A DNA stretch of 64,000 nt from a virus. Taxonomy: Duplodnaviria > Caudoviricetes. The notes below the pieces were generated by a model. That model was not told the origin of the DNA and ran no database searches. It saw only the letters and a list, made by a program, of their open reading frames with translations. The stretch is from IMG/VR virus record IMGVR_UViG_3300020148_000032, one strand, 5' to 3'. Both the position numbers and the translations under genes were made by a program. Shown piece by piece: positions 1 through 15,006 of the stretch (the stretch's first letter is position 1; every line of letters starts with the position of its first letter).

Positions 1-22
1 CTTCATATTAAACTAAAGGGAA

Positions 23-418: not shown

Positions 419-419
419 G

Positions 420-913: not shown

Positions 914-917
914 ATAA

Positions 918-1005: not shown

Positions 1006-1038
1006 ACATATTTATACTACCATATCTCATCAGTATAG

Positions 1039-2448
1039 TCAATTAAGATATTTCTTTTTTTTTATGAAATTATCAAGAATTTCAAGGGCTTCTTTCTTAG
1101 TTTTAAAATTACCCCTATATTGCATTTCTCTAAATTGAGAAATAATTTCTCCAACCCAAGGCCCTGGTTTCTTTGAAGAACACTCAAGAATATCTTTACC
1201 CATTACAAAATCAGGTTCATATGAAGTATATATACCTTCAAGGGCAGCCTTTTGAGAAACTTCTATAATTTCTTTATCATCAATAACCTTACCGTAAGAA
1301 TACAAACGTTCGAAAGTGAACCCTCTTGAACGAAGTTCAAATGCTAATTTCTTACGAAGATAAGTAGTTGACGCATCAGAAGACTTGAACTTGGCAAGAT
1401 CTTCAGCAATATCTTGCTTATCTCTCCCGATAAGAGAGATTGAATAAAAATCTTTTCGATCCTTTTGATTCATATTTCTAGCAATAAGAGCAGAACCAAT
1501 AATATCCTTATCCTTTTTTAAATGAGTAATTTCATTAATTCTTTTTTGAACCATTTCTGAAGATAAAGATTCTTTAAGTCCAGGGCTGATATCATCCCAA
1601 CCTGATTCTTGAAGAGCAATAACTCCATTAAGAGGTTTAGTGCTCTTTGTGAAGAATTTTTCCCATTCGCCTTGGACCCTTTCAGTTGAAAGATGTTCAT
1701 ACTCTGAACGTATAGATTGAGCGAGCTCCCTTGTATCAGGAGCCCAACGAAGGTTAAAGCGTGCAGCAAATTGGAAGCCTCTAAGAACTCTTAAAGGATC
1801 TTCAGAAAATTTACCACTTACATGACGGAGGACACGTCTATTAAGGTCACTAAGACCTCTAGACGGATCTATAATCATGTGATTTACATGGTCATACATC
1901 ATTGCATTAAGAGTAAAGTCTCTTCTTTCAGCAGCTTCAAGAAGTGTCATTTCAGTATCCATTACTACTTCGAAAGATCTGTGCCCAGCACCAACACGGT
2001 TTTCTTTACGAGGTACACTTACGTCAAGGTCGGTAACCCCTCTTCCGGAGACTTTAAGTACTCCAAATTCTTTACCCACTTCGTCAACAATGTAACCTTT
2101 ATTTTTTAAAAATTGAGCAAGGGAATCAATAGTTGTTCCGTGGACTTCAATGTCAATGTCTTTATTTGAAGAACCTGTAATGGAATCACGAACAGCACCA
2201 CCGACAATAAGAGGGGTTCCCTCTTCTTGAATTTCAGTAATAATATTATCTATTGTTTCTGGAAGTTTCATGATAAACGGTCTAACATTTTCTTTCCCAT
2301 ATTCGTTCGCTCTTTCTTGATAAAGAGATGGGTTATTAATCATGTCTTTTTGTTCTGGAGTGAATTCAAAATCTTCAAAAGGGCATGCTCTCTTTCGTGC
2401 GTTACAAAGAGAAAATGAGCCTTTAGAGTTAAGGTGATATCGTGTCAT
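1039..2448 (-). CDS. cca: CCA-adding tRNA nucleotidyltransferase with short N-terminal His/Cys extension
   Basis: VGGAVRD, DIDIEV, RRDFTLNAM, EDPLRVLR class II nucleotidyltransferase motifs. Confidence 0.9.
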   Translation of the reverse strand: MTRYHLNSKGSFSLCNARKRACPFEDFEFTPEQKDMINNPSLYQERANEYGKENVRPFIMKLPETIDNIITEIQEEGTPLIVGGAVRDSITGSSNKDIDIEVHGTTIDSLAQFLKNKGYIVDEVGKEFGVLKVSGRGVTDLDVSVPRKENRVGAGHRSFEVVMDTEMTLLEAAERRDFTLNAMMYDHVNHMIIDPSRGLSDLNRRVLRHVSGKFSEDPLRVLRGFQFAARFNLRWAPDTRELAQSIRSEYEHLSTERVQGEWEKFFTKSTKPLNGVIALQESGWDDISPGLKESLSSEMVQKRINEITHLKKDKDIIGSALIARNMNQKDRKDFYSISLIGRDKQDIAEDLAKFKSSDASTTYLRKKLAFELRSRGFTFERLYSYGKVIDDKEIIEVSQKAALEGIYTSYEPDFVMGKDILECSSKKPGPWVGEIISQFREMQYRGNFKTKKEALEILDNFIKKKKYLN

Positions 2449-2508
2449 AAGTAGTGCACTCCTTCAAAAGTTTTTCTAAAGAGAAAACGAGTACACTTTC
2501 TTCTTTAA

Positions 2509-2586
2509 TGGTAGCCCTGACTGGATTCGAACCAGTGATCTCTTCTTTATGAGGGAAGCGCTTTCGACCGACTAAGCTACAGGGCC
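2509..2586 (-). tRNA. tRNA-Met/Ile2(CAT), CCA encoded
   Basis: Loop CTCATAA; non-initiator acceptor. Confidence 0.88.
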
Positions 2587-2602
2587 ATTATTTTGTGATG
2601 TG

Positions 2603-2685
2603 TGCCTAAAGCGGGACTCGAACCCGCACGCCCTTTCGGGCACGGCGTTCTTAGCGCCGCACGTCTACCATTCCATCATTCAGGC
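2603..2685 (-). tRNA. tRNA-Leu(AAG)
   Basis: CGGCG CTAAGAA CGCCG; long variable arm; A73. Confidence 0.9.
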
Positions 2686-2785
2686 ATTGAGGATAAGGTG
2701 AGTTTTAATTCATATTCTCCTCAAAATATGAAAACCACAATGTTAGTGGCTCTCGATGTTGACATTTTATTATCCAGAAATATTG

Positions 2786-2998
2786 TCAACATGTAAAAAT
2801 TATCGGCGGATATTTTCCACCAATGTGAACTTGATAAGCAGTTCTATACAAAGAATCATCCGAACCAGAAGAGTTCAAATAATCTTTCATTCTTTTCACT
2901 ATCTTTTTTAAATTAAAGTGAGACGGTTGTGAAGAACTACCCATATAACCCAATGCTACTATTTTAGCTTGAGAATTCATCATTTCATAAGCATTCAT
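2786..2998 (-). CDS. Hypothetical protein
   Basis: 70-aa ORF, AAAGGAG RBS. Confidence 0.6.
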   Translation of the reverse strand: MNAYEMMNSQAKIVALGYMGSSSQPSHFNLKKIVKRMKDYLNSSGSDDSLYRTAYQVHIGGKYPPIIFTC

Positions 2999-3021
2999 TA
3001 TAATTCTCCTTTTAATAAATG

Positions 3022-3092
3022 CTGCCCGACTAGGATTCGAACCTAGACCTGTTGAGTCAGAGTCAAATATGCTGCCATTACACTATCGGGCA
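3022..3092 (-). tRNA. tRNA-Gln(CTG)
   Basis: Loop CTCTGAC. Confidence 0.9.
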
Positions 3093-3101
3093 ATAGTTGG
3101 T

Positions 3102-3341
3102 TTACTTCTGATGCAAACCAAGAACAGTGATATCTCCAGTGAGAGTATCAAGAGTACAATCAACCGCGATTTCACAAAAAGCAAAACGAGCGGTTTCGGA
3201 CTTGTTAAGAAGTTCCACAATCTCTTCCTCAGAAATTGGCGCTCCGCCTTCAGCTTGATTCATAGAATAATGAATCATTTCGGCGCGCTCCTTATTAGAT
3301 CCAGCGGAGCCGCTAAGATAATAAACAAATGGAAGCTTCAT
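3102..3341 (-). CDS. Hypothetical protein, paralog of 3380-3607
   Basis: Shared C-terminal C-x-(I/L)-D-x-x-TGDI-x-(I/V)-LG motif. Confidence 0.7.
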   Translation of the reverse strand: MKLPFVYYLSGSAGSNKERAEMIHYSMNQAEGGAPISEEEIVELLNKSETARFAFCEIAVDCTLDTLTGDITVLGLHQK

Positions 3342-3379
3342 GGGAAACCCTTTCAACAAGAATAATGAACTATTCTATT

Positions 3380-3607
3380 CTAATTGGAAAACCCTAAAAT
3401 GTCAATGTCTCCAGTATCAAGATCAATAGAGCATTTTAATTCAACTTCTTGAAAAGAGTAATAACTTGACTTTTGTCGAATAAGTTCATAAAGTTCATCC
3501 TCAGTAAGATGATAATTAGGGTCTTTCGCAAGTTGCTCGTGAAGAATTTCAGAAAGTTCCCTGTGCGTATAATCATCATGAATAGTATGAGTAAACTTTA
3601 TTTTCAT
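3380..3607 (-). CDS. Hypothetical protein, paralog of 3102-3341
   Basis: Shared C-terminal motif; GAAGG RBS. Confidence 0.7.
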   Translation of the reverse strand: MKIKFTHTIHDDYTHRELSEILHEQLAKDPNYHLTEDELYELIRQKSSYYSFQEVELKCSIDLDTGDIDILGFSN

Positions 3608-3635
3608 TGGGACCTTCTATTCTGTTAAAATATAG

Positions 3636-3709
3636 TGTGACTAGACGGACTTGAACCCTCAACCACTGGTACCACAAACCAGCGCTCTACCAATTGAGCT
3701 ATAGCCACC
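3636..3709 (-). tRNA. tRNA-His(GTG)
   Basis: Loop TTGTGGT; G-1 encoded, A73. Confidence 0.88.
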
Positions 3710-3807
3710 ATCGTTACTTATTTCTTGCAACAATCTCCACCGCAAGAACAAGTGCAATCTTCTTTATCTTTATACATATTTCACCACCTTCATATGAATA
3801 ATATGAG

Positions 3808-3880
3808 AGCGAGTGACCAGATTCGAACCGGCGTTAACAGTTTGGAAGACTGTAGTACTAGGCCTCTGTACGACACTCGC
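3808..3880 (-). tRNA. tRNA-Gly(TCC) copy 1
   Basis: Loop CTTCCAA; 1 nt different from 9889-9961. Confidence 0.9.
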
Positions 3881-3919
3881 AATATGTCAATATTCTATCA
3901 AGAATATCAACAAGTTTTA

Positions 3920-4093
3920 TTAATCATCAATAACAACAGAAATCATCGCCTTAGCAGAAGGATTATCGGAATGCTTTTCGAGAACCTCGACCTTATGTTC
4001 GGTAGCCTCAGCAAAAGTATCGTCATAAGAATAGACGACCCAATAGTTTCCATCAAAGAAAAGAACCATAAACTTACCAAAATGATTAAACAT
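3920..4093 (-). CDS. Small hypothetical protein (57 aa, MFNHFGKFMV...)
   Basis: AAGGA RBS; TTGACA-17-TATTAT promoter at 4159-4131. Confidence 0.6.
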   Translation of the reverse strand: MFNHFGKFMVLFFDGNYWVVYSYDDTFAEATEHKVEVLEKHSDNPSAKAMISVVIDD

Positions 4094-4335
4094 GTGAATC
4101 CTTATTTTAATAGTAGTGATGAGTTATTTCATAATAACACTATATGATAAGAATGTCAATATACTCAAAGCGCGCAGGAAGTTGAACAATTAGCGCTTCA
4201 TGTTCAACCTTTCCCGCGCCTTTAAACGGAATTTTTGTTATTCTGTAGATTAATTCTAACTACAACCCACTTTATGATGAGGGCTCGCCGTGATATCCAT
4301 ACACGGTCTCGAAGGGATACATACATATCCCGAAG

Positions 4336-4406
4336 CTGGAGTACTAGGATTCGAACCTAGACTAACTGATCCAAAGTCAGGGGTGCTGCCATTACACTAT
4401 ACTCCA
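4336..4406 (-). tRNA. tRNA-Gln(TTG)
   Basis: Loop CTTTGGA. Confidence 0.9.
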
Positions 4407-4445
4407 AAGTTTAATGCATAATTATTAATTATATCAAGAAAAAAG

Positions 4446-4520
4446 TCTAGATAGAAGGATTCGAACCTTCGACTCCTCGGATCCAAACCGAGTACCCTGG
4501 CCAAACTGAGCTATATCTAG
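4446..4520 (-). tRNA. tRNA-Pro(TGG)
   Basis: Loop TTTGGAT. Confidence 0.9.
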
Positions 4521-4547
4521 ATAGCAATCACAAGGATTGCTTTTTTA

Positions 4548-4697
4548 TTAAGAATGAGAAGCACGTCTAAAACGAACTTCATTCATAGTTTTGTACGTTT
4601 CAAAATCCTTAGTTTGTAACAAAGTCTCCGAAAGAATTTCATCAAAACTTCCCATCATTTCAAGTTCAACTTCAACTTTAGAATTTATATGATACAT
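4548..4697 (-). CDS. Small hypothetical protein (49 aa, MYHINSKVEV...)
   Basis: AAGGAG RBS. Confidence 0.5.
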   Translation of the reverse strand: MYHINSKVEVELEMMGSFDEILSETLLQTKDFETYKTMNEVRFRRASHS

Positions 4698-4739
4698 AAG
4701 GTTCTCCTTTTTAAAAAATTTTCTATATAAAGTTTATAG

Positions 4740-4812
4740 TGAATCTAGAGGGACTCGAACCCGCAACCTCTTCCGAGTCAAGGAAGCGCTCTACCAATTG
4801 AGCTATAGATTC
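4740..4812 (-). tRNA. tRNA-Val(GAC)
   Basis: Loop TTGACTC. Confidence 0.9.
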
Positions 4813-5014
4813 ATAAGCTGCTGTCTAAAAAATTATAAGACTATAGCAGAAGAGATAACTAGGCAGGACATACCAGGCTGGGGGAGCAGATGTGAGAGTG
4901 ATAGCATCATGGTAGTGTCCTTTCTAAGTTGAGAAACTGCAGTATAGCAGTAGTTTATGATTGAAGTGTTTCAATATGCAGAAAAAGTTTTAATCTTTTT
5001 AAGCTGCAGTGTAG

Positions 5015-5098
5015 TGTCCAGGATGGGAGTCGAACCCACATGACCTTTCGGTCACAGCGACCTCAACGCTGCGCGTATACCAATTCCGCCACCTGGAC
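5015..5098 (-). tRNA. tRNA-Leu(GAG)
   Basis: Long arm; loop TTGAGGT. Confidence 0.92.
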
Positions 5099-5120
5099 AT
5101 TGAAGTAAAAATACTTATCG

Positions 5121-5202
5121 CGGAGGGCACGGGATTCGAACCCGCGACCGTGTTACCGGCGACCGATTTCAAGTCGGTTTGCTAACCATTCGCCTACCCT
5201 CC
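5121..5202 (-). tRNA. tRNA-Ser(TGA)
   Basis: Long arm; loop CTTGAAA. Confidence 0.9.
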
Positions 5203-5259
5203 AAGGGTTAAAGATTAAAGAAGTTTCCCGAGCTCTAGGTTCTCTTTAATCAATCACTT

Positions 5260-5322
5260 TTAAAATATAACCCAAACTTTACGACACTGCCGTAGAGGGG
5301 AATCGAACCCCTCATATTTTAA
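5260..5322 (-). ncRNA. Permuted tRNA-mimic RNA 2
   Basis: TTAAAATAT-[GAGGGG TTCGATT CCCCTC]-[TACGGC AGT GTCGTA]-AAGTTTGGGTT-ATATTTTAA. Confidence 0.7.
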
Positions 5323-5369
5323 CGCTTAACTCTGCGCATACACATTCACGTTATAGTGTAAGAAGTAAG

Positions 5370-5442
5370 CGCCCGTAGAGAGATTCGAACTCCCGACACC
5401 TTGGTCCGAAGCCAAGTGCTCTATCCACTGAGCTATACAGGC
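5370..5442 (-). tRNA. tRNA-Arg(TCG)
   Basis: Loop CTTCGGA. Confidence 0.9.
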
Positions 5443-5644
5443 AAAAACGAGACTAGTTTAACCAGAACACACTCGCAATATCATAATCCCTGATTCCTTA
5501 AAAAAGAAACCCGAAACTTTTCACACCAGATATTTGGCGGCTTTATTTACTCCAAGTCGAGAGTCCCTATTTTATACTCAGGAAATAAGGATCCAAGGAC
5601 AATGGTTAGTTGTCATGCTCTATGGAAGCTACAATGAAAGAAAA

Positions 5645-6703
5645 TTAGAATTTCAAGGCAAGATTAGAGCAATTATTAGGAATAAACTCCTTTTTATCTT
5701 CTAAATCTTGAATAGAAACACCAACATGAGAAAAACGAACACTCTCACCAACAATAATAAAAAGATTCAAGTCAGAATTCTTATCAAAAGAATCCCTCAT
5801 TTTATGAAGCATATCATCTGTAACCCAACCTTTATATTCTATATAAAGATCATAATCTTCAATGTAAAAATCAGGATAAAATTTCCTATTCTTTCCTTCT
5901 AAAGTCACATAAGGGAAACCCTTAGAATTACGTGTCCAATTAATAGGTAAAGAATCAAGAAAATTAGCAACCCTAATTTCCTCACGATTTAAATACATTA
6001 TCTCACCACTTTTTACAGTGTGATGAAAGTTTTTACTGCGACCTCCGCCAGGACGTAGACCACCATTATTAGAAAGATCGCGTCCAGCAAAAGAACACTT
6101 ATTAGAGCAAAATTTTCGAGTAGTAGTATTAGCGAAAAATTCTTTCTTACACATTGAGCAGAATATATAACGGGGACCCACTTTTTGTCTTTTTATTTTA
6201 CTTAAAGATCTACTCTTTCTCTCAGAATTTTTGCATTCAAGATTACAATATTTTGACTTACTACTATTAGATTTAAAGTCTTTTTTGCAAACAAAACATG
6301 TATGTGAATAAACTCTTAAAGAAACTATTTTAGTGCTACATTCTATAGAGCAAAATTTTAATCCTTTTCTGTTACCAGAGCGGCCCGCATATTTTTCAAA
6401 AACTTTGTTACAAGATTGATTTTGACAAATAAGTATCTTCCAGCCTTTAGCTCTACGTTTAGCGCAAACTTCAGAAGATCCATGAGCAATTAAACTTTTA
6501 TTAGTTTTAAATTCTGTTTTACAAGAAGAACAGAAAGTAGAATTAGGGTCGATTTTACGAGTTTTATAAGAAATATTATGAACCATTTTAAGATGAGTTC
6601 TCATTCCCATAAAAGTGAGAAATTTTCTTTCACAAGTTTTAAAATCACAAGGAATAATAAGCTCAGAAGGATCGGCATCTGTGGATCTCTTTGTTTTAGT
6701 CAT
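5645..6703 (-). CDS. Multi-zinc-finger PD-(D/E)xK endonuclease (free-standing homing-endonuclease-like)
   Basis: C2H2 and repeated CxxC...FCSxxC units; C-terminal YPDF...IEYKG. Confidence 0.75.
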   Translation of the reverse strand: MTKTKRSTDADPSELIIPCDFKTCERKFLTFMGMRTHLKMVHNISYKTRKIDPNSTFCSSCKTEFKTNKSLIAHGSSEVCAKRRAKGWKILICQNQSCNKVFEKYAGRSGNRKGLKFCSIECSTKIVSLRVYSHTCFVCKKDFKSNSSKSKYCNLECKNSERKSRSLSKIKRQKVGPRYIFCSMCKKEFFANTTTRKFCSNKCSFAGRDLSNNGGLRPGGGRSKNFHHTVKSGEIMYLNREEIRVANFLDSLPINWTRNSKGFPYVTLEGKNRKFYPDFYIEDYDLYIEYKGWVTDDMLHKMRDSFDKNSDLNLFIIVGESVRFSHVGVSIQDLEDKKEFIPNNCSNLALKF

Positions 6704-6729
6704 ATGATTATTTTATCAAAAATTAATCG

Positions 6730-6800
6730 CAGGAGTACTAGGAATCGAACCCAGATCATCGAGGTTGGAGCTCGAGATTTTACCATTAAACTACACTCCT
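6730..6800 (-). tRNA. tRNA-Trp(CCA)
   Basis: Loop CTCCAAC. Confidence 0.92.
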
Positions 6801-6825
6801 ATAGTGTAAAAATGAAATAAAGAGA

Positions 6826-6938
6826 ACTCTTCCAACATATTCCAAAATATTGCATCATTTTCCAGAATGATAAAGAGTGCAACCGAAAGGTTAAAGATAA
6901 GGATCACCCTTCGTAATCTAATTCGGACTGGAATCCGA
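6826..6938 (-). ncRNA. Candidate kissing-loop ncRNA
   Basis: Hairpin loops at 6860-6865 and 6928-6933 are exact complements (TTCCAG/CTGGAA). Confidence 0.5.
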
Positions 6939-6946
6939 CCCTATCG

Positions 6947-7017
6947 AGCTAATGACGAGAATCGAACTCGCGTTATCTCGTTGGCAACGAGAAGTTTTAC
7001 CATTAAACTACATTAGC
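6947..7017 (-). tRNA. tRNA-Gly(GCC)
   Basis: Loop TTGCCAA. Confidence 0.92.
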
Positions 7018-7292
7018 ATTTGGCCTTTTCTTCCGTGAGGGTAGTACCATACCCCTTCGCTTCATTCCTGTCGGCGGCCGTTTCCTTTATGCCTCTAGTG
7101 TTTAACGGGTTAATCATCGTGGTCTCCCAACGGACCTACCACAATATTTTATTATATCAGAAAATTTACGAACTTTCATATTTGGTATTCGTAATGAGAG
7201 CCGATAACTCCTCAACCTCATAAGGGTACATCAACCTGGGGCTCGAAGAAATCTTTTTCAATTTCGGCAGGCATCACTTGCATTCCTTATAG

Positions 7293-7378
7293 TAACGGAG
7301 GCGGGATTTGAACCACTTATATAATTGCGACCTCTAGGTTATGAGCCTAGCGAGCACTCCGAGCTGCTCCACTCCGTG
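7293..7378 (-). tRNA. Initiator-type tRNA-fMet(CAT) with ~11-nt insertion in T-stem
   Basis: C1:T72 mismatch, loop CTCATAA; GC-AATTATATAAGT-GG TTCAAAT CCCGC. Confidence 0.75.
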
Positions 7379-7391
7379 TCGTTATCATTCG

Positions 7392-7467
7392 TAGCGGTGA
7401 CAGGATTCGCACCTGCGATCTCTAGGATATGAGCCTAGCGGGGACAACTGAACTCCCCTACACCGCG
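7392..7467 (-). tRNA. Initiator-type tRNA-fMet(CAT)
   Basis: CGCGGTG acceptor with C1:T72; T-loop TGCGAAT. Confidence 0.85.
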
Positions 7468-7519
7468 CTTAAGGGATGAAGTATTCTGCGTAATATTGTT
7501 ACGAGATTTTTCATCCTAG

Positions 7520-7592
7520 AGCCACCTATCGGGTTCGAACCGATGACCTTCTCATTACTAGTGAGATGCTCTACCAACTGAGCTAAGGGGGC
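7520..7592 (-). tRNA. tRNA-Thr(AGT)
   Basis: TCTCA CTAGTAA TGAGA. Confidence 0.9.
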
Positions 7593-7717
7593 AGTGAGGA
7601 ATGATGAATTCCTCTAAGTTAATACATAGTAAGACCACCTGACTTAATCATGTTATCATCATAATCAAGTACTGGAGAATCCTCGCGGAGTTTCCCTTCT
7701 TATTTTTGTTAACTTTG

Positions 7718-7791
7718 AGCCCCTTGTCAGGTTCGAACTGACGACCTTTCGCTTACAAGGCGAACGCTCTGACCAACTGAGCTAAGGGGGC
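7718..7791 (-). tRNA. tRNA-Thr(TGT)
   Basis: Loop CTTGTAA. Confidence 0.92.
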
Positions 7792-7834
7792 ATGGTGATA
7801 GACTGAATTCAATATATTCATCTTCAATCTATCG

Positions 7835-7906
7835 TGGAGAATAGGGGACTCGAACCCCTAACCTTGACCTTGCAAAGGTCCTGCGCTACCATTGCGCCAA
7901 TTCCCC
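7835..7906 (-). tRNA. tRNA-Ala(TGC)
   Basis: G3:U70; loop TTTGCAA. Confidence 0.92.
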
Positions 7907-7961
7907 ATCGTAACTTTTTGAAAGTTACGTTAGTAACACTATTTTAATATCAGTATTTGAT

Positions 7962-8036
7962 TGGTACCCCCGGGCAGAGTTGAACTGCCTTCATCATGTT
8001 ATAAGCATGAGGTCCTAACCCGTAGACGACAGGGGC
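7962..8036 (-). tRNA. tRNA-Ile(TAT), CCA encoded
   Basis: TCATG CTTATAA CATGA. Confidence 0.88.
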
Positions 8037-8098
8037 ATAATTTTTTAATTATGGTATTACTATATCAATTTTTTTGAAAAAGTCAAATTGTTTAATAA

Positions 8099-8174
8099 TG
8101 GTAGGCCCCCTGGGATTCGAACCCAGAACCTGCGGATTAAAAGTCCGTAGCTCTGCCGTTGAGCTAGAGGCCCA
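8099..8174 (-). tRNA. tRNA-Lys(TTT), CCA encoded
   Basis: Loop CTTTTAA. Confidence 0.9.
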
Positions 8175-8197
8175 TCTTTATATCATTTTCTAACGCG

Positions 8198-8271
8198 TGG
8201 ACCCGAGGAGAATCGAACTCCTCGCACTAACCTTGCAAAGGTTGGTCGCCCCCCTTGGAACATGCGAGCCC
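8198..8271 (-). tRNA. tRNA-Ala(TGC), divergent D-arm
   Basis: G3:U70; loop TTTGCAA. Confidence 0.8.
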
Positions 8272-8275
8272 ATTT

Positions 8276-8393
8276 GAAAGTTTCATTTATAGGAATGATA
8301 CTTACAAACACCCAGGCTCCTCCACCTGGATTCGAACCAGGAACCTTAGAGTTAACAGCTCTCTGCTCTGCCGTTGAGCTATGGAGGAATAGG
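8276..8393. repeat. 118-bp direct repeat (tRNA-Asn plus 3' trailer), second copy 13851-13968
   Basis: One mismatch between copies. Confidence 0.9.
8317..8388 (-). tRNA. tRNA-Asn(GTT) copy 1
   Basis: Loop CTGTTAA. Confidence 0.92.
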
Positions 8394-8640
8394 TTGTCAC
8401 TATATTTCCATTAAGGAATTATAGAAATATTTTCCACATAACCACATTTCAGTTTGATCATCATATATTTCTTCAGCGAACAGATCCACAATAAAGGAGA
8501 CATAGTCCCCTTTTATATTATATATGTAATCATATGAAGTGTATTGTGATGGGTTGTTAATTCACCATTCTTTATGTAATTTTTTCTTTTATTTTCATTA
8601 TATTCTCCTTTATATATTTTTATATGGAGATATTCATGAG

Positions 8641-8715
8641 TGCGCGTTGAGGGACTCGAACCCCCGACCGCCTCGGTGTAAACGAGGAACTCTAACCAAC
8701 TGAGTTTAAACGCGC
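8641..8715 (-). tRNA. tRNA-Val(TAC)
   Basis: Loop TTTACAC. Confidence 0.9.
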
Positions 8716-8774
8716 ATGATGTTTTGTCGAGCAAGTACACTATACTATATCAGTATAGTGATTGTCAAATTGAC

Positions 8775-8849
8775 GCTCCAGGTATAGGAATCGAACCTAT
8801 GCCGCCCTGATTCAAAGTCAGGGTTCCCATGCCAGCAGAGAACCTGGAA
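8775..8849 (-). tRNA. tRNA-Gln(TTG), divergent
   Basis: CCTGA CTTTGAA TCAGG. Confidence 0.8.
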
Positions 8850-9042
8850 AACCGACTAGAAGGGACCAACCTTTTCACGGTTACTTATTTTCGTTTAAGT
8901 AGTACCTAACCATCTCTTGGTTAGTCTGTTTTTCGAACGGTGTAGTTTTAGTATACACGAGATACTGTCGTTTCTTCGGCGATCACGACAAGCGCCCCAC
9001 AAGCCCAGTGGGTGGGGAGACGAGCGGTTAATTCATCTCGTG

Positions 9043-9115
9043 CGCGCCCGGAGGGATTCGAACCCCCAACCTTCTGATCCGTAGTCAGATGCTCTATCCG
9101 TTGAGCCACGAGCGC
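9043..9115 (-). tRNA. tRNA-Arg(ACG)
   Basis: Loop CTACGGA. Confidence 0.93.
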
Positions 9116-9264
9116 ATGGTCGCCTTTTAAGATCTTGTTCCCACATACTTGGAGCACCCCTTAAAAGACTTCATGATAAGTCACAAATATCACGCATTCG
9201 GTTAGTTTCCCTTATTCTGGTCAGGAATCTAACACCTTACCAGGGGCGTTCAATGGAGAGTTAA

Positions 9265-9434
9265 TCTTCACTAAACGTTTTAATATGACGCGACTCATAT
9301 TAAGAATTAGGTGGCAATCGCGTTCACCAACTTAGAATCATTGCCTTTTGAATAGACACCCACCGTGGGCGCGAATGCGCTATATTTTAAAAAGATAATC
9401 CCTACATTGTACAGAGTAGGGTAAATAGTGAAGA
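9265..9434 (-). ncRNA. Candidate multibranch pseudoknotted ncRNA
   Basis: 9-bp closing stem TCTTCACTA/TAGTGAAGA, several hairpins, complementary loops at 9289-9294 and 9317-9322. Confidence 0.45.
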
Positions 9435-9517
9435 GATGTTCGGGAGAATAGCCAATCGCCGTGCTTTCGAGAGCATTTTTCCTTCATTATTTAACTAGGG
9501 TATCACTATCTATAGAG

Positions 9518-9601
9518 TGGGCCCGGCCAGATTCGAACTGGCAACGTTTCTCCGTCACTGTTTTACAGACAGCTTGCTTCAGCCAATTTGCATACGGACC
9601 C
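9518..9601 (-). tRNA. tRNA-Tyr(GTA)
   Basis: Long arm; loop CTGTAAA. Confidence 0.9.
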
Positions 9602-9784
9602 AAAGTGTGTTGATTTTTGAAAGATAGGTTCAACACACAAAACCTTCTCAAACATGAAAGTTTGAATTATCACTAGTTTAAAGACACTTTGGCTGGAACC
9701 TTTCACCCTTGTAAGAGTTTCCAGTAACTCATACCACTCCTTAGAGGTGGGAAGACGAAGTGTGCCTCTACTCCGAAAGATCAT

Positions 9785-9881
9785 GATAACCCGACTCCTG
9801 TCGTTCTCTCATACAACCGTGTATTATGAGGAGTTGAACCTCAAGAGTTTACCTACACCTTTTGATAGGTGCGAGGTTACC
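9785..9881 (-). ncRNA. Permuted tRNA-mimic RNA 3
   Basis: GGTAACCT..hairpin GCACCT/AGGTGT..ACTCT-[TGAGG TTCAACT CCTCA]-[TAATACA CGGT TGTATGA]-GAGAACGACA-GGAGT-C-GGGTTATC. Confidence 0.6.
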
Positions 9882-9888
9882 ATTAAAG

Positions 9889-9961
9889 AGCGAGTGACCG
9901 GATTCGAACCGGCGTTAACAGTTTGGAAGACTGTAGTACTAGGCCTCTGTACGACACTCGC
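9889..9961 (-). tRNA. tRNA-Gly(TCC) copy 2
   Basis: Loop CTTCCAA. Confidence 0.92.
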
Positions 9962-10057
9962 AAAGCGATATAGCGGTCTCACGCATTGACGCCAACATGT
10001 AGCGTCTCAACCCTTTGTACTGGGTATATCATCGCGGGCTTGGTTTTCACCTGAGCG

Positions 10058-10139
10058 CTCCCCCACCTGGACTCGAACCAGGAGGAATAAATTCACGGAT
10101 TAACAGTCCGTCCCGCTGCCAATTACGGTTTATGAGGGA
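10058..10139 (-). tRNA. tRNA-Asn(GTT) with enlarged variable region
   Basis: ACGGA CTGTTAA TCCGT then GAATTTATTCCT before T-arm. Confidence 0.8.
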
Positions 10140-10254
10140 ATAGGAAAGAGATTTTTATGTCAGGCTCTCTTTCATTGTACCCTATCTGGGAACCCAGAGT
10201 ATTTGCATGTTGACATTAATGCAATATGTTCAACTTAACATCGAACATGCAAAG

Positions 10255-10328
10255 CGACCGCGACGGGGCTCGAACCCGCGACCTCTACCGTGACAGGGTA
10301 GCGCTCTGACCAACTGAGCTACGCGGCC
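10255..10328 (-). tRNA. tRNA-Asp(GTC)
   Basis: Loop CTGTCAC. Confidence 0.93.
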
Positions 10329-10363
10329 ATAATAGTTTAACGTCAGTTTCGGACGAAAATGAT

Positions 10364-10528
10364 TTAGGTATTAATAACTGCACGACGCTTCGGGAAGAGT
10401 CGAGACTTAATCTTGGTCATTTCACGCTTGGTAGCGCGATAATTACGCTCGTTTTCTCGAATGAAAGCAAGCTCCTCGACAATTCGCTTGCGACGATTCT
10501 CAGCCTTGACCTGTGCATTAGTAGCCAT
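10364..10528 (-). CDS. Small basic protein (54 aa, MATNAQVKAENRRKRIVEEL...)
   Basis: TAAGGA RBS; Arg/Lys-rich; below ORF-track cutoff. Confidence 0.7.
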   Translation of the reverse strand: MATNAQVKAENRRKRIVEELAFIRENERNYRATKREMTKIKSRLFPKRRAVINT

Positions 10529-10592
10529 TGTGTTATCCTTACTTCGTGCTTTTTTATTACTTACATAAGATCCACATTTTCATGCGGAACAG

Positions 10593-10666
10593 CGACCGCA
10601 ACGGGACTCGAACCCGCGACCTCCACCTTGACAGGGTGGCGCTCTAACCGACTGAGCTATGCAGCC
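10593..10666 (-). tRNA. tRNA-Asp(GTC)
   Basis: Loop CTGTCAA. Confidence 0.92.
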
Positions 10667-10874
10667 ATATATTTCGACCTACGGGTTCTTCCGTCAGTGG
10701 TATTATCATTCCGGATTTCAAATACCTAACCTCTAGTAAGTACGTAGATTCTATACACTTCCAATGTTATAAATTTTTGTGTTGGCTAACGAAAACCTAT
10801 GACATTGTTTGATAAAGCAGTTTGCCATGCCAAACTACATCGAAATAATGTTCTTTCATATTTTTATGAAATAG

Positions 10875-10946
10875 TAAGTATTATAGGATTCGAACCTATA
10901 TCTCTCAGCGGGTAAGCCGAGTGCTCTTCCATTAAGCTAAACACTC
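10875..10946 (-). tRNA. tRNA with 8-nt anticodon loop (CTTACCCG), identity undetermined
   Basis: Intact acceptor, D and T arms; CTCGG CTTACCCG CTGAG. Confidence 0.7.
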
Positions 10947-10947
10947 C

Positions 10948-11040
10948 ATCTAATCACGAGCAGATCACACTCTGCCAAACGCGGCAACGTTTGCCCAAGT
11001 GGTGCATCTCGAATTGATAACAAGAATTGCCGTCCTTGTT
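10948..11040 (-). ncRNA. Candidate kissing-loop ncRNA
   Basis: Hairpin loops at 10982-10987 (CGGCAA) and 11027-11032 (TTGCCG) are exact complements. Confidence 0.5.
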
Positions 11041-11048
11041 ACTCCTTG

Positions 11049-11122
11049 TACCCCCTCAGGGATTCGAACCCTGGACCCACTGATTAAGAGTCAGTTGCTC
11101 TAACCTACTGAGCTAAGGAGGC
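11049..11122 (-). tRNA. tRNA-Lys(CTT)
   Basis: Loop CTCTTAA. Confidence 0.93.
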
Positions 11123-11211
11123 ATAAATGTTTATGCTATTGTATCAGTTTTTACATAAACTTTATTCTTTCGAATGTCTGGGGTTATATTTTTATCTCTG
11201 ACCCAGTAAGG

Positions 11212-11322
11212 GGCGGTTACGTTACATTAGCGTTATCTCCAGATAATCATCGTTGAAGTTGCATCATTGACTTAAAGGAATTGAACCTTTACTAACCTTG
11301 TCACTGGACAAGGTAACCTACC
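11212..11322 (-). ncRNA. Permuted tRNA-mimic RNA 4
   Basis: GGTTAC..hairpin CTTGTC/GACAAG..TTAGT-[AAAGG TTCAATT CCTTT]-irregular capped stem-ATCTGGAGATAAC-GCTAA..GTAACC. Confidence 0.5.
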
Positions 11323-11323
11323 G

Positions 11324-11396
11324 TGCCACCGGTCGGAATCGAACCGACGACCTTTCGTTCTTCAGACGAACGCTCTACCAATTGAGCTACAGTGGC
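11324..11396 (-). tRNA. tRNA-Phe(GAA)
   Basis: Loop CTGAAGA. Confidence 0.92.
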
Positions 11397-11440
11397 ATTC
11401 ATATCACTTTTGATTTATCAAGTTTCATTCAATAAGTAAT

Positions 11441-11469
11441 ATTATACATGAAGTGATTCCTCATGTCAA
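11441..11469 (-). promoter_or_regulatory. Consensus primary-sigma promoter
   Basis: TTGACA-17-TATAAT. Confidence 0.85.
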
Positions 11470-11497
11470 ATCAAAACCGAATAAAGTTTTGAAAGAG

Positions 11498-11571
11498 TGC
11501 GGGTACCTGGACTTGAACCAGGGACCTTCGACTTATCAGGTCGATGCTCTAACCAACTGAGCTACACCCGC
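11498..11571 (-). tRNA. tRNA-Ile(GAT)
   Basis: Loop CTGATAA. Confidence 0.93.
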
Positions 11572-11682
11572 ATAAAATGAAGAATACCTCTTAATAAGGA
11601 AGTTCCTGGCATCGGCGAGAAAATCTCATGGACGTGATAATCCATTATTCTTCATTTTTCTTACTGTATTAAACAGTAATCG

Positions 11683-11754
11683 TACCCCGACGGAGAATCG
11701 AACTCCGGCGACGAGGTCGAAAGTCTGGCGTACTAACCTCTATACTACAGGGGC
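11683..11754 (-). tRNA. tRNA-Glu(TTC) with disrupted anticodon stem
   Basis: Near copy of 12165-12236; CCAGA/CCTCG has two mismatches. Confidence 0.65.
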
Positions 11755-11755
11755 A

Positions 11756-11832
11756 TGGGGTGTCTGACGGGATTCGAACCCGCGGATGACCGAGTCACAG
11801 TCGGCTGCGTTAACCTTTTCGCCACAGACACC
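11756..11832 (-). tRNA. tRNA-His(GTG), G-1:C73, CCA encoded
   Basis: Loop CTGTGAC. Confidence 0.93.
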
Positions 11833-12078
11833 ATCGGGGTATAAAGTGGCCACAATATACCCCTATAACATAAAATAATATAATAATTAAAATAATATAA
11901 TAATAAATAAATAATATTGTAAAAATGCGAAGTTTTTGTTCACTTGAAATAAAGTCTTTATTATGATGCTTTATACCACGGGTGTTTATATCCCGGATTA
12001 CATATAAAGATCATTTTATACATTCCAAATTTAGAGAATGCATAAATCTTCACTTGCCGACTTTCACCGACAATTAAA

Positions 12079-12146
12079 ATAATCAACTAAAGAATCGAAC
12101 TTTAGAACCCTATTTTTCAGTAAATGGGCTTCCTAATTTTGATTAT
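12079..12146 (-). ncRNA. D-armless tRNA-like element
   Basis: ATAATCAA/TTGATTAT stem, unpaired AATTAGGA, irregular hairpin, CTAAAG TTCGATT CTTTAG. Confidence 0.5.
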
Positions 12147-12164
12147 CACCTGCTTAACGCATTG

Positions 12165-12236
12165 TACCCCGACGGAGAATCGAACTCCGGCTACCAGATT
12201 GAAAGTCTAGCGTACTAACCTCTATACTACCGGGGC
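12165..12236 (-). tRNA. tRNA-Glu(TTC)
   Basis: Loop CTTTCAA. Confidence 0.92.
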
Positions 12237-12283
12237 AAGGTGTCTAGAATTATGGGGACCGCCCCGACTAGACTCAATGTATA

Positions 12284-12997
12284 TTACATTCCAATGAAAT
12301 CATTGGAAATTTTTATCCATTTCTTGGGTTCACGATAAAATTCTCTCCATAGTATTCTTAATACTACCCATCCTTCATCAGAGGCAAGGGAATCCTTTGT
12401 TTTATCAGAAATAATTTGACGTTGATAACGAATGTGTTGATCGCCATCGATTTCAATTACTTTCTTTTTGTGAAGCCAAGCAAAATCGAAAGAATACTTT
12501 TCAAAAGGGTATTCTCTCACAAAATTTTTATCATCAAACTCGTTTTCAATAACTTGAGTGAAGAATTTTTCAGGATAAGATTCATTGATGCTTGGATTTA
12601 ACCACCGCATGGCTTGATTCTTTTTATGTTTATCCTTCATTATTGAAGAAAGTTTCTCTTTCGTCTTTTTTGAATGTTTTCGTCCAAGATTTGGAGAATT
12701 AATTCTTTCAGGGTTTGAATAACAATAGTTTTTATGTAATCCAAACCCAGATTTGTTTGTATTAAAAATTTTCATGCACCATTCGCACGTAAATTTTCTA
12801 CGTTTAATTGAATTCTTTGAAATGAAATCACTTTTAGTGTGAGCCATTTCTTTGTTATGTTGTTGCATCTTTCTCCTTGTAGAGAAAGTTAAACAACATA
12901 ATGAGCAATTCCATTGTGGAGAACCGTTGCATTTTTTAATGTGTAGAGAAAGGGCATGTTTTGTGAAGTTTTTAACTTTACATTGTGAACATTCCAT
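12284..12997 (-). CDS. Zinc-finger/NUMOD3 + DUF559(Vsr-like) endonuclease, homing-endonuclease-like
   Basis: C2H2 fingers, GRKHSKKTKEKLS, DFAW..IEIDGDQH..D; start moved to 12997 to avoid tRNA-Ser. Confidence 0.8.
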   Translation of the reverse strand: MECSQCKVKNFTKHALSLHIKKCNGSPQWNCSLCCLTFSTRRKMQQHNKEMAHTKSDFISKNSIKRRKFTCEWCMKIFNTNKSGFGLHKNYCYSNPERINSPNLGRKHSKKTKEKLSSIMKDKHKKNQAMRWLNPSINESYPEKFFTQVIENEFDDKNFVREYPFEKYSFDFAWLHKKKVIEIDGDQHIRYQRQIISDKTKDSLASDEGWVVLRILWREFYREPKKWIKISNDFIGM

Positions 12998-13015
12998 TTT
13001 TATCAACACCTTAAG

Positions 13016-13104
13016 CGGAAGTGACAGGATTCGAACCTGCGGGCGCCTTGTTAGACGCCACACGATTAGCAGTCGCGCGCCTTAATCCACTCAGCCACAC
13101 TTCC
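13016..13104 (-). tRNA. tRNA-Ser(GCT)
   Basis: Long arm; loop CTGCTAA. Confidence 0.93.
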
Positions 13105-13128
13105 ATTGATTGTTTTTCTTACAATTCG

Positions 13129-13209
13129 TTGGAAATAGAGGACTCGAACCTCTTAAGCATGAAGCGACCCCTTTACAGGGGGTTTCCTTTTCCTATTGGA
13201 TAATTTCCT
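13129..13209 (-). tRNA. Divergent tRNA-Tyr(GTA), 1:72 mismatch
   Basis: ACCCC CTGTAAA GGGGT; A1:A72. Confidence 0.7.
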
Positions 13210-13211
13210 AA

Positions 13212-13302
13212 AAATACTTGATGAATCCCATGTGAGTGTCATTCACCGCCGGAGTCGAACCGGCGCATCACATTCAGTAGACTAATCTGAATGGTAGTAT
13301 TT
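13212..13302 (-). ncRNA. Permuted tRNA-mimic RNA 5
   Basis: AAATACT-AC-[CATTCAG..CTGAATG]-TGATG-[CGCCGG TTCGACT CCGGCG]-[GTGAAT GAC ACTCAC]-ATGGGATT-CATCA-AGTATTT. Confidence 0.75.
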
Positions 13303-13308
13303 CTATTG

Positions 13309-13381
13309 TACCCCGAACGGGATTCGAACCCGTGTTACCGGCGTGAGAGGCCAGCGTCCTAGGCCACTAAACGACCGGGGC
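13309..13381 (-). tRNA. tRNA-Glu(CTC)
   Basis: Loop CTCTCAC. Confidence 0.93.
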
Positions 13382-13407
13382 ATTGATTTTAAATTTATTA
13401 AAAAGAT

Positions 13408-13531
13408 CGATGTTTGGTAGGACTCGAACCTCCTGCATCCGCGCTCCTGAACGCGGCCGTCTACCTCATGGTTTATATTCCGTAAACTTTGCCTAACTTC
13501 ATGCGGCGGTCATTTCAGCCGGTCAAATATC
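13408..13531 (-). ncRNA. tRNA-like RNA with 8-bp acceptor, ~50-nt D-arm insertion and 8-nt anticodon loop
   Basis: GATATTTG/CAAACATC; CCGCG TTCAGGAG CGCGG; AGG TTCGAGT CCT. Confidence 0.5.
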
Positions 13532-13597
13532 CCGAAAGACATGAGAGGTTAGGTCTTCTGCGAGTGCTATAGCCTTGCGTATCGAATGCTCGCATTG

Positions 13598-13672
13598 TCG
13601 GGGTAACAGGATTCGAACCTGCGACTTCTCGCTCCCAAAGCGAGCGCTCTGACCAAACTGAGCTATACCCCG
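13598..13672 (-). tRNA. tRNA-Pro(TGG)
   Basis: Loop TTTGGGA. Confidence 0.93.
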
Positions 13673-13686
13673 TTAATTATCGTGCG

Positions 13687-13759
13687 TGCCTTCGGTGAGA
13701 TTCGAACTCACACTGTATCGATTTTGAGTCGACTTCCTCTACCGTTGGGATACGAAGGC
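13687..13759 (-). tRNA. tRNA-Leu(CAA), short variable arm
   Basis: Loop CTCAAAA; actinobacterial short-arm Leu type. Confidence 0.9.
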
Positions 13760-13765
13760 AAAGGG

Positions 13766-13846
13766 TGGTAGATGAGGGATTCGAACCCCCGAAGCTTTCG
13801 CAACTGATTTACAGTCAGCTCCCTTTGGCCGCTCAGGAAATCTACC
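13766..13846 (-). tRNA. tRNA-Tyr(GTA)
   Basis: Loop CTGTAAA. Confidence 0.93.
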
Positions 13847-13891
13847 ATTCGAAAGTTTCATTTATAGGAATGATACTTACAAACACCTAGG

Positions 13892-13963
13892 CTCCTCCAC
13901 CTGGATTCGAACCAGGAACCTTAGAGTTAACAGCTCTCTGCTCTGCCGTTGAGCTATGGAGGA
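13892..13963 (-). tRNA. tRNA-Asn(GTT) copy 2
   Basis: Identical to 8317-8388. Confidence 0.92.
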
Positions 13964-14039
13964 ATAGGAGGCCACCGAGAAGGAGTTTTCTACTGGAAGG
14001 CTTCAGTTGCTCTGAAAACATATTTCAAAATAACGAGAG

Positions 14040-14112
14040 CACCCGTAGAGGGATTCGAACCCCCGACACGCAGATTAGAAGCCTGCTGCTCTATCCACTG
14101 AGCTATACGGGC
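14040..14112 (-). tRNA. tRNA-Arg(TCT)
   Basis: Loop CTTCTAA. Confidence 0.93.
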
Positions 14113-14125
14113 AAGATGTGTTACG

Positions 14126-14200
14126 TCGGGGTAACAGGATTTGAACCTGTGACTCCTCGGTCCCAAACCGAGTGCTCTGGCCAAACTGAGCTACACCCCG
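14126..14200 (-). tRNA. tRNA-Pro(TGG)
   Basis: Loop TTTGGGA. Confidence 0.93.
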
Positions 14201-14224
14201 TTAAGATGTTTATATTATTGGGAG

Positions 14225-14297
14225 TGCCTCCGGTGAGACTCGAACTCACACTGAATCGATTTTAAGTCGACTTCCTCTGCCATTGGGATACGAAGGC
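14225..14297 (-). tRNA. tRNA-Leu(TAA), short variable arm
   Basis: Loop CTTAAAA; paralog of Leu(CAA). Confidence 0.9.
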
Positions 14298-14420
14298 AAG
14301 ATGGTGTCATATGTTTAGATCTTTAGGTTGTCACATATGACACATCAGAATTTGGCTTTTTCAATAACTCAACCTTGAAGATCGTTATTGAGCACAAGCT
14401 CTGACTAAAATCATATTTAT

Positions 14421-14553
14421 AGTCCGCATAAGCGGCGCCCCCTAAGATTCTCATCCTCAAGATGAGCATTGCTCTTAACAGACACGGATTTTCCTATCGA
14501 CGGCACCCTCCGATTGGGGCAGGAACTGCTTCCCTGGCATGCCTAGCCAGACT
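14421..14553 (-). ncRNA. GC-rich structured RNA at head of tRNA operon
   Basis: AGTCTG/CGGACT closing stem, multiple internal hairpins, ~25 nt below promoter. Confidence 0.45.
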
Positions 14554-14577
14554 TCTTTTATTTAATTTATATTTAAT

Positions 14578-14606
14578 ACTATATCATGTTTCAAAATGTT
14601 TTGCAA
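14578..14606 (-). promoter_or_regulatory. Primary-sigma promoter of tRNA array
   Basis: TTGCAA-17-TATAGT with TG extension. Confidence 0.7.
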
Positions 14607-14868
14607 CCTTTAATTCATTTTATAGCATTTGTGTCCCCACCGAAGTGGTTCAACAGTTTCCAATTTTAACCAATTTTTTAGAGTTTGCCAACATTTTTTC
14701 ATTTTATTTTTCCTCGTCACCAACTCGGCGAGTCCTAAGAAAAAGATGAAATAATGCGACTAATCTTTATTGATTTATTAAGGTAAGTATTACGGTAACA
14801 CATTAATCACGCTCAGTCAAACTGTAGCGCGGGGATTTTCGGGTAGTGTTTGAACCCTAGTTTTTAGA

Positions 14869-15006
14869 TTATCGACGATGCCCTAAAATCGATCCCTGGC
14901 AGATATCTCCTGTTGGATACATCCCATTCTCGAGTTTAGGCTGTCTAAAGGAGACGGCAGGCTTATTCAAGCCACTTTCAATGATGTGTTGCGATTGAAT
15001 CATCAT
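14869..15006 (-). CDS. Small ORF (45 aa, MMIQSQHIIE...) with sequestrable RBS
   Basis: AAAGGAG RBS; internal complement GTCTCCTTT. Confidence 0.45.
   Translation of the reverse strand: MMIQSQHIIESGLNKPAVSFRQPKLENGMYPTGDICQGSILGHRR

Follow-up and report, generated by a model that had tools for sequence, protein, structure and literature searches.

Three T-arm-bearing elements in the tRNA gene spacers of a phage-like genome as candidate tRNA-derived RNA modules

The 64,000-nucleotide (nt) stretch of IMG/VR record IMGVR_UViG_3300020148_000032 analysed here (the window) belongs to a phage-like genome of approximately 437 kilobases (kb). The GC content of the window is 35-43%. Positions 179-14297 are occupied by an array of transfer RNA (tRNA) genes, all located on the minus strand, in which ARAGORN called 49 tRNA genes and Rfam gave two further weak tRNA hits. 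A gene for a CCA-adding enzyme (cca, 1039-2448) and a DUF559 endonuclease gene lie within the array, while a gene for a SpoU/TrmH-type methylase (20904-21476) and an RNA ligase gene (52132-53160) are found outside it. Three spacers between the tRNA genes hold the elements studied here, which were designated E1, E2 and E3. A preliminary description of this DNA had presented them as three copies of one subtype of tRNA mimic, related to YrlA RNAs and distinguished by an additional hairpin on the 5' side.

All three elements are encoded on the minus strand and follow directly after a tRNA gene on the same strand. E1 (9785-9881, 97 nt) starts 6 nt after tRNA-Gly(UCC) (9888-9961), E2 (11215-11318, 104 nt) starts 4 nt after tRNA-Phe(GAA) (11323-11396) and E3 (13212-13302, 91 nt) starts 5 nt after tRNA-Glu(CUC) (13308-13381). 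E3, with its ends paired, fills the whole spacer 13210-13307 between tRNA-Glu(CUC) and tRNA-Tyr(GUA) (13128-13209, minus strand), and the 5' end of the latter, directly downstream, abuts the closing stem of the element. The sequence common to E1-E3 is limited to the T-arm, which is perfect in each of them, with a stem of 5-6 base pairs (bp), a TTCRAYT loop and a G-C closing pair (TGAGG-TTCAACT-CCTCA at 9827-9843 in E1, AAAGG-TTCAATT-CCTTT at 11274-11290 in E2 and GCCGG-TTCGACT-CCGGC at 13248-13264 in E3). A side hairpin of 6-8 bp is located 5' of the T-arm in all three elements, and the hairpins named in the preliminary description were all recovered, as GCACCT/AGGTGT at 9855-9872 (E1), CTTGTC/GACAAG at 11297-11312 (E2) and CATTCAG/CTGAATG at 13271-13293 (E3). 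The side-hairpin loops, of 6, 4 and 9 nt in E1, E2 and E3, were rejected as anticodon loops on account of these sizes, and kissing between the side loop and the T-loop was inconsistent, a 4-nt match (AGTC with GACT) being present in E3 only.

Each element is closed by an outer stem of 6-10 bp, which reaches 10 bp in E1 and E3. It is formed by GGTAACC (9875-9881) with GGTTATC (9785-9791) in E1, by GGTTAC (11313-11318) with GTAACC (11215-11220) in E2, and by AAATACT (13296-13302) with AGTATTT (13212-13218), extendable to 9-10 bp, in E3. Further helices can be drawn inside the outer stem. A 5-bp stem between the side hairpin and the T-arm may be formed by ACTCT (9844-9848) with GGAGT (9794-9798) in E1 and by TTAGT (11291-11295) with GCTAA (11227-11231) in E2. 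A possible capped stem follows the T-arm at 9811-9824 in E1, and a weak one, consisting only of AAGT/ACTT, at 11256-11273 in E2, which also contains a D-like hairpin (TTATC-TGGA-GATAA, 11233-11246). The capped stem measures 5 bp in E1 (7 bp with a mismatch), 4 bp in E2 and, depending on the fold, 7 bp (lowest-energy) or 4 bp (preliminary model) in E3. The secure parts of E1-E3 are the T-arm, the side hairpin and the outer stem only. Of the helix set that had been attributed to all three elements, these parts stood, whereas the 5-bp stem, the capped stem and the D-strand are short and compete with other folds; the least certain of the modelled parts is the extra 5-bp helix between the side hairpin and the T-arm.

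The T-arm of E3 is identical to that of tRNA-Gly(UCC) at 16 of the 17 positions, and an 11-nt sequence in front of and extending into E1, TTTAATGGTAA (9877-9887), is identical to the D-loop region of tRNA-Gly(GCC) and tRNA-Trp. These two matches point to descent from tRNA genes. Beyond the T-arm, no tRNA remnant can be recognised in E2 and E3, and the 11-nt D-loop match is all that is left in E1. T-arm hairpins outside tRNAs (orphan T-arms) were concentrated on the tRNA strand of the array and are therefore considered to be related to tRNAs rather than to arise by chance. Two further examples on the minus strand were observed. One, at approximately 12075-12150, is tRNA-like and of normal order, lacks a D-arm, and has the acceptor TAATCAA/TTGATTA and the T-arm TAAAG-TTCGATT-CTTTA. 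The other lies in the 215-nt spacer 13382-13596, the 3' end of which resembles the variable arm and T-arm of a class II tRNA.

The common arrangement of E1-E3 was compared with chance using a topological descriptor with four parts: directly adjoining the T-arm, a stem of 5 bp or more; downstream of it, at a distance of 2 nt or less, a capped stem of 4 bp or more; upstream, no further than 6 nt away, a side hairpin of 6 bp or more; and around them an outer stem of 5 bp or more, with linkers not exceeding 6 nt. Among the 54 minus-strand T-arms, the descriptor matched exactly E1-E3, and 0.03-0.2% of flank shuffles matched it, figures that are optimistic because the descriptor was written and tuned after E1-E3 had been seen. 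When generic spacer hairpins (5-bp stem, 7-nt loop) were scored in the same way, 3 of 88 matched, namely E1-E3 themselves, and none of the other 85. Only one match was obtained among 170 T-arms inside tRNAs from the window and nine related loci. The single match among the 29 orphan T-arms of the nine loci was a tRNA-Ile(GAU) missed by ARAGORN. With the above caveat, these counts support a common compact layout of E1-E3 that exceeds chance, and the helix order and abutment previously proposed (outer stem, side hairpin, 5-bp stem, T-arm, capped stem) were thus found in E1-E3 only, by a post hoc measure.

Related arrays were reached through the SNF2 helicase gene that adjoins the tRNA array, which has many relatives at 55-70% identity, on contigs of up to 0.8 megabases. 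Those with a 63-67% identical SNF2 were L016, L018, L021, L022, L024 and L025, and approximately 25 kb of tRNA arrays from four of them (L016, L018, L021 and L022) was compared with the window. In these four the upstream gene order was kept and the tRNA order was completely reshuffled. Near-identical contigs (L012-L014 and L023) stop short of E1-E3. The search of IMG/VR with the SNF2 helicase gave no relatives, and that with cca gave only relatives at no more than 49% identity, in which no E-type orphan T-arm was found.

The arrays of the relatives contained several elements of another kind, permuted cloverleafs, in which a closing stem, a T-arm, a capped stem of 6-8 bp and a D-arm with GG follow one another. 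They were located at L016:20055-20129, L016:20362-20473, L022:14438-14511 and L021:12694-12760, with a minimal form at L018:16652-16711, and two lie in the window itself (23-134 and 5260-5322). Comparison of L016:20055-20129 with its orthologue L022:14438-14511 revealed five compensatory pairs out of 23, with 100% pairing, and the two share the 3' flank GACAGGACCGTGAAACTCGGCAAACTTAGTGA. The MAFFT alignment of four permuted cloverleafs misaligned two of them, and the covariance model of the permuted cloverleaf (R2) was built from this orthologue pair instead. R2 scored the window elements 5260-5322 and 41-112 at 31.5 and 18.4 bits, respectively. Judged from these sequences, the permuted cloverleafs appear to form one family of tRNA-like RNAs, circularly permuted and spread through the clade, in the tRNA arrays of huge phages. 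Since they show compensatory changes and R2 finds copies in the window, the clade is concluded to maintain functional tRNA-mimic RNAs. The proposal that E1-E3 are tRNA-derived, anticodon-less elements of common layout, in an array that also holds permuted tRNA mimics, was upheld. Two side observations were made in the relatives. Genes resembling tRNA-Ile(GAU), with a 7-nt CTGATAA anticodon loop, were left uncalled by ARAGORN at L022:17531-17603 and at approximately 17985-18057 of L018, the L022 copy having an unusually long variable region. The five-way tRNA-like construct at L018:17475-17595 consists of two T-arms, a D-like hairpin and another hairpin, of 6-nt loop, all enclosed by an 11-14-bp stem.

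Likenesses between the permuted cloverleafs and E1-E3 include their presence in the same arrays and on the same strand, a T-arm that abuts the closing stem, a hairpin immediately following this T-arm and a GG mostly present in the next strand. In contrast to E1-E3, the permuted cloverleafs have a capped stem of 6-8 bp, usually a real D-arm, compensatory changes and no side hairpin, and they score 18-100 bits with R2, versus 7-9 bits for E1-E3. We tentatively favour the reading that E1-E3 are tRNA-derived, self-folding RNA modules in the spacers of the minus-strand tRNA operon. They may work like the permuted cloverleaf RNAs of the clade, in a looser form and with little of the D-arm. We would give a little less than an even chance to their being processed spacer RNAs that display a tRNA elbow and have a T-arm-dependent function, as mimics or decoys. 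The points counted in favour of this reading were the concentration of orphan T-arms on the tRNA strand of the array, the flawless T-arms, the near lack of internal promoters and terminators, the unique match to the layout, the stability of E1 and E3, the exact spanning of its spacer by E3, the permuted cloverleafs of the clade, and the CCA-adding enzyme, SpoU/TrmH-type methylase and RNA ligase encoded in the window.

The organisation of the array is consistent with such an origin. A perfect match to a sigma-70-type promoter (TTGACA-17-TATAAT) is located at 11441-11469 on the minus strand, upstream of tRNA-Phe and E2, and suggests that transcription may also start internally in the tRNA operon. 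Within E1-E3 there are no promoters or terminators, except for a weak 9-of-12 promoter match in E1 (9783-9812); apart from this match, the elements have no signals of their own and are therefore regarded as parts of tRNA precursors. E1-E3 would be transcribed together with the tRNAs and released as the flanking tRNAs mature, with ribonuclease (RNase) Z or exonucleases trimming the one upstream and RNase P cleaving the one downstream, so that E3 would emerge as a spacer RNA of approximately 98 nt with paired ends. The paired ends would shield the elements from exonucleases, and the closed fold would display the elbow, or top half, of a tRNA without an anticodon or a free acceptor end. Factors with an affinity for the T-arm (e.g., TruB, TrmA, RNase P, the CCA enzyme and tRNA-targeting host nucleases) could find a ligand or decoy in such an RNA. 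A more specific proposal, which we consider unlikely, is that E1-E3 represent a new class of phage small RNAs specific to this lineage, in which a closed three-way-junction scaffold would present a bare T-loop elbow, would be excised by tRNA-processing enzymes and would act independently of Ro60 as a decoy or sponge for host factors that use the elbow or top half to bind or cleave tRNAs.

The tRNA cluster of phage T4 encodes the stable RNAs C and D (species 1 and 2), which are small, structured and of unknown function; like E1-E3 as proposed here, they are co-transcribed with the phage tRNAs and released by tRNA-processing enzymes. To our knowledge, RNAs C and D have no sequence relation to E1-E3 and have not been described as closed T-arm modules.

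Several groups of observations weigh against the reading of E1-E3 as self-folding modules, in addition to the post hoc nature of the descriptor. The first concerns the folding of the elements themselves. E1 was more stable than its shuffled sequences (z-score −3.5), but at its energy minimum (−31.1 kcal/mol) it folds into a rod in which the T-arm is lost. The model of the preliminary description reached −22.9 kcal/mol, and an alternative in which the side hairpin serves as variable arm and a small D hairpin is formed reached −24.1 kcal/mol. The pairing probability of the E1 T-arm was accordingly only 0.004, a value to be read against the 8% of the real tRNAs of the array that also fall below 0.05. 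E2 was the weakest of the three, with a z-score of −0.46, i.e., not more stable than shuffles, and a T-arm pairing probability of 0.65. E3 was more stable than shuffles (z-score −2.9) and its T-arm had a pairing probability of 0.999. However, the inner part of E3 can adopt three mutually exclusive folds: the one initially described, with TGATG/CATCA and GTGA/TCAC (−24.6 kcal/mol), the lowest-energy fold, with a 7-bp stem GGTGAAT/ATTCATC directly after the T-arm (−26.5 kcal/mol), and a third with ATGTGA/TCACAT. The inner helices of the three elements are only 4-5 bp long and have alternatives, and a capped stem of at least 4 bp after the T-arm arose in 28-46% of shuffles.

The second group concerns the surroundings of the elements. 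The inter-tRNA spacers (255-14038) are structured in general, with a median folding z-score of approximately −2.2 and several values below −4 (e.g., 255-418, 2686-3020, 7468-7518 and 11572-11681). The coarse layout, consisting of a hairpin and an enclosing stem, was found around 18 of the 88 spacer hairpins, and a capped stem together with a 5-bp stem around 22 of the 88. The start of each element close to the 3' end of the upstream tRNA, as originally pointed out, was confirmed at 6, 4 and 5 nt, but it proved to be generic, as the first paired base lay no more than 7 nt from the tRNA 3' end in all 17 spacers of 35-130 nt. This hairpin at the start of every such spacer would also fit cis-acting processing modules, in which folded spacers prevent misfolding of the neighbouring tRNAs, block exonucleases that attack from the 3' side, or use the T-arm to attract RNase P or the CCA enzyme, and are then degraded. 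Most tRNA genes of the array do not encode CCA, as read at three tRNA ends, which agrees with this explanation, as does the position of cca within the array. Nevertheless, a generic hairpin would suffice for insulation, so the canonical T-loop sequence would be left unexplained, and the layout of E1-E3 is used by no other spacer; we regard a purely cis-acting role as improbable.

The third group of observations comes from the covariance models. The MAFFT alignment of E1-E3 intended for a joint model was unusable, the T-arms being misaligned, and a model (R1) was built from E3 with the structure of the preliminary description. In a search of 15 kb at E ≤ 10, R1 listed neither E1 nor E2. Applied to their own regions alone, it aligned E2 over its full length at 5.1 bits and E1 over the T-arm only, at 3.6 bits. 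R2 scored E1, E2 and E3 at 7.4, 8.5 and 9.3 bits, essentially for the T-arm alone, and its alignment of the three elements contained no aligned D-arm. The view that E1-E3 form one subtype alignable by a covariance model was not borne out, with R1 recovering neither of the other elements and R2 seeing the T-arm only. A structural alignment of the three better than chance, on which that view depended, was thus not obtained with covariance models, whereas the topological descriptor did set the three apart. R2 also returned false positives of the 'dimeric tRNA' type, against which the work on YrlA warns in model searches (Chen et al. 2014, PMC4201824). The match at 4404-4480 on the minus strand (34.7 bits), which covers the T-arm of tRNA-Pro and the following spacer, is probably one of them; this spacer can pair with the 3' strand of the acceptor.

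The fourth group concerns conservation. Neither a positional orthologue nor an E-type layout was found in the approximately 25 kb of arrays from the four relatives. The same negative applied to all six relatives with a 63-67% identical SNF2, L024 and L025 included, whose arrays are reshuffled, and blastn against cultured phages gave no match. Because no orthologue was obtained from either source, there is no covariation evidence for the elements.

Many of these observations would also be expected if E1-E3 were debris, their T-arms being remnants of tRNA genes that had been rearranged or duplicated in part. The spacers would then be under selection only for a generic richness in hairpins, for processing or folding insulation, and the common layout would reflect coincidence together with this general tendency to fold. 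The generally structured spacers with their frequent coarse layout, the lack of orthologues in the arrays of the four relatives and the failure of the covariance models all fit this explanation, as do the D-loop fragment in E1 and the similarity of the E3 T-arm to that of tRNA-Gly(UCC). The arrays turn over fast, with the tRNA order shuffled among relatives whose SNF2 is 63-67% identical, and orphan T-arms are common in the relatives (29 across nine loci), some of them being odd tRNAs missed by ARAGORN. Duplication is also evident in the window. Near-identical spacer hairpins of 42-43 nt are present at 8272-8314 and 13848-13889, each after a copy of tRNA-Asn(GUU) and followed by different tRNAs, and the pair of tRNA-Asn(GUU) and its spacer looks like a recent segmental duplication within the array. 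On the other side, the three T-arms are flawless although the remainder of the tRNA is gone, the tight geometry of the junction occurs in none of the 85 other spacer hairpins and in one of the 170 tRNA T-arms, and the outer stem can be as long as 10 bp in E1 and E3. Debris is, in our judgement, a serious possibility, if not the preferred one.

The order of parts in E1-E3 also recalls circularly permuted genes. In two-piece (permuted) transfer-messenger RNA (tmRNA) genes and in the permuted tRNA genes of Cyanidioschyzon, the T-arm is followed by the 3' strand of the acceptor, a loop and the 5' strand of the acceptor, an order shared with E1-E3, and processing of these genes yields functional acceptor ends. 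The hairpin directly after the T-arm and the paired ends of E1-E3 would be compatible with circularly permuted tRNA genes whose transcripts mature to working tRNAs. However, unlike the known permuted genes, E1-E3 have no tag reading frame, no anticodon and no ARAGORN call. With no anticodon arm in the three elements, no proper D-arm in E1 and E3, no tRNA called by Rfam RF00005 either, and a loop of only 3 nt that would be left by joining the ends of E3, this explanation is nearly excluded.

The kinship of E1-E3 with YrlA RNAs was assessed by comparison with the YrlA consensus. YrlA RNAs carry a 5' GNCGAAN0-1G motif, the proposed contact with Ro60, and nearly invariant T and D stem-loops with a capped 'AS' stem-loop between them; many also carry, upstream of T, a stem-loop termed 'V' that is less conserved and is regarded as the equivalent of the variable arm of tRNAs (Chen et al. 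2014, PMC4201824). Their genes lie within 4 kb of Ro60 on the same strand, and they are known from phages that encode a Ro60 orthologue, including several mycobacteriophages (PMC4201824). It could be argued that E1-E3 are true Y RNAs, i.e., diverged RNAs of the YrlA type, the partner of which would be a Ro60-like protein with its gene in another part of the genome of approximately 437 kb; the side hairpin would then be the V arm. The order of basal stem, V, T, capped stem and GG-containing D region can be drawn in all three elements, and the occurrence of YrlA in Ro60-encoding phages lends this some plausibility. Both groups have a tRNA-type T stem-loop, which a capped stem may follow in E1-E3 as it does in YrlA, within a fold whose ends pair; both lack an anticodon and occur in phages, and a hairpin upstream of T is possible in both. 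The side hairpin of E1-E3 takes the place of 'V' if the outer stem is read as the analogue of the anticodon stem.

Several specific hallmarks of YrlA were lacking. In the 15-kb Rfam search, neither YrlA (RF02553, gathering score of 69 bits) nor tRNA hit E1-E3 at the gathering score or at E ≤ 10, and the only YrlA match, of 20.9 bits, fell on tRNA-Arg/Pro (14088-14153). The motif GNCGAAN0-1G occurred nine times in 15 kb of the minus strand, in no case in or beside E1-E3. One of these sequences, GCCGAAGG (160-167, minus strand), is located 12 nt after tRNA-Leu, and the basal stem of the permuted cloverleaf 23-134 follows approximately 26 nt further downstream. ACAGCAA, a handle sequence of tRNA mimics of other phages, was absent from positions 1-15000 of the window, and ACAGC was not enriched there. 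No TROVE or DUF2828 match was found among the 40 open reading frames of the 64-kb window, nor in the one distant relative record that could be searched, whereas YrlA genes lie close to Ro60. The T stem-loop (TTCAACT, TTCAATT and TTCGACT loops) was the only YrlA feature clearly present in E1-E3, although a hairpin in the V position can also be drawn. Unlike YrlA, they show no clearly conserved D stem-loop: the candidate D regions (GAC-AGGA-GTC, TTATC-TGGA-GATAA and ATG-GGATT-CAT) are short and exclude the 5-bp stem of the preliminary model. The capped stem is weak or ambiguous, and the hairpin and the T-arm may be set apart by an additional helix of 5 bp. By these sequence criteria, E1-E3 are not members of the YrlA family, so the suggested kinship was not supported, and we consider true Y RNAs very improbable. 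The side branch, once thought to be new relative to YrlA, has a described counterpart in the 'V' stem-loop upstream of T (PMC4201824), which leaves only the 5-bp helix as unusual.

E1-E3 are thus at best a variant of the tRNA-like mimic RNAs known from phage tRNA arrays, and the only possible novelty with respect to YrlA is the extra, weakly supported 5-bp helix. The comparison also teaches that a T-arm accompanied by short stems that can be drawn is insufficient for assignment to the YrlA family.

Huge phages carry dozens of tRNA genes, the purpose of which is debated between codon matching and the countering of host defences that target tRNAs. If E1-E3 were stable RNAs that present only the elbow and derive from the spacers, tRNA mimicry would be encoded in such arrays at a second level, in addition to the tRNAs themselves. 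If they are debris, E1-E3 would illustrate the speed at which tRNA arrays are reshuffled and may show how permuted mimics arise at the junctions of tandem tRNA genes.

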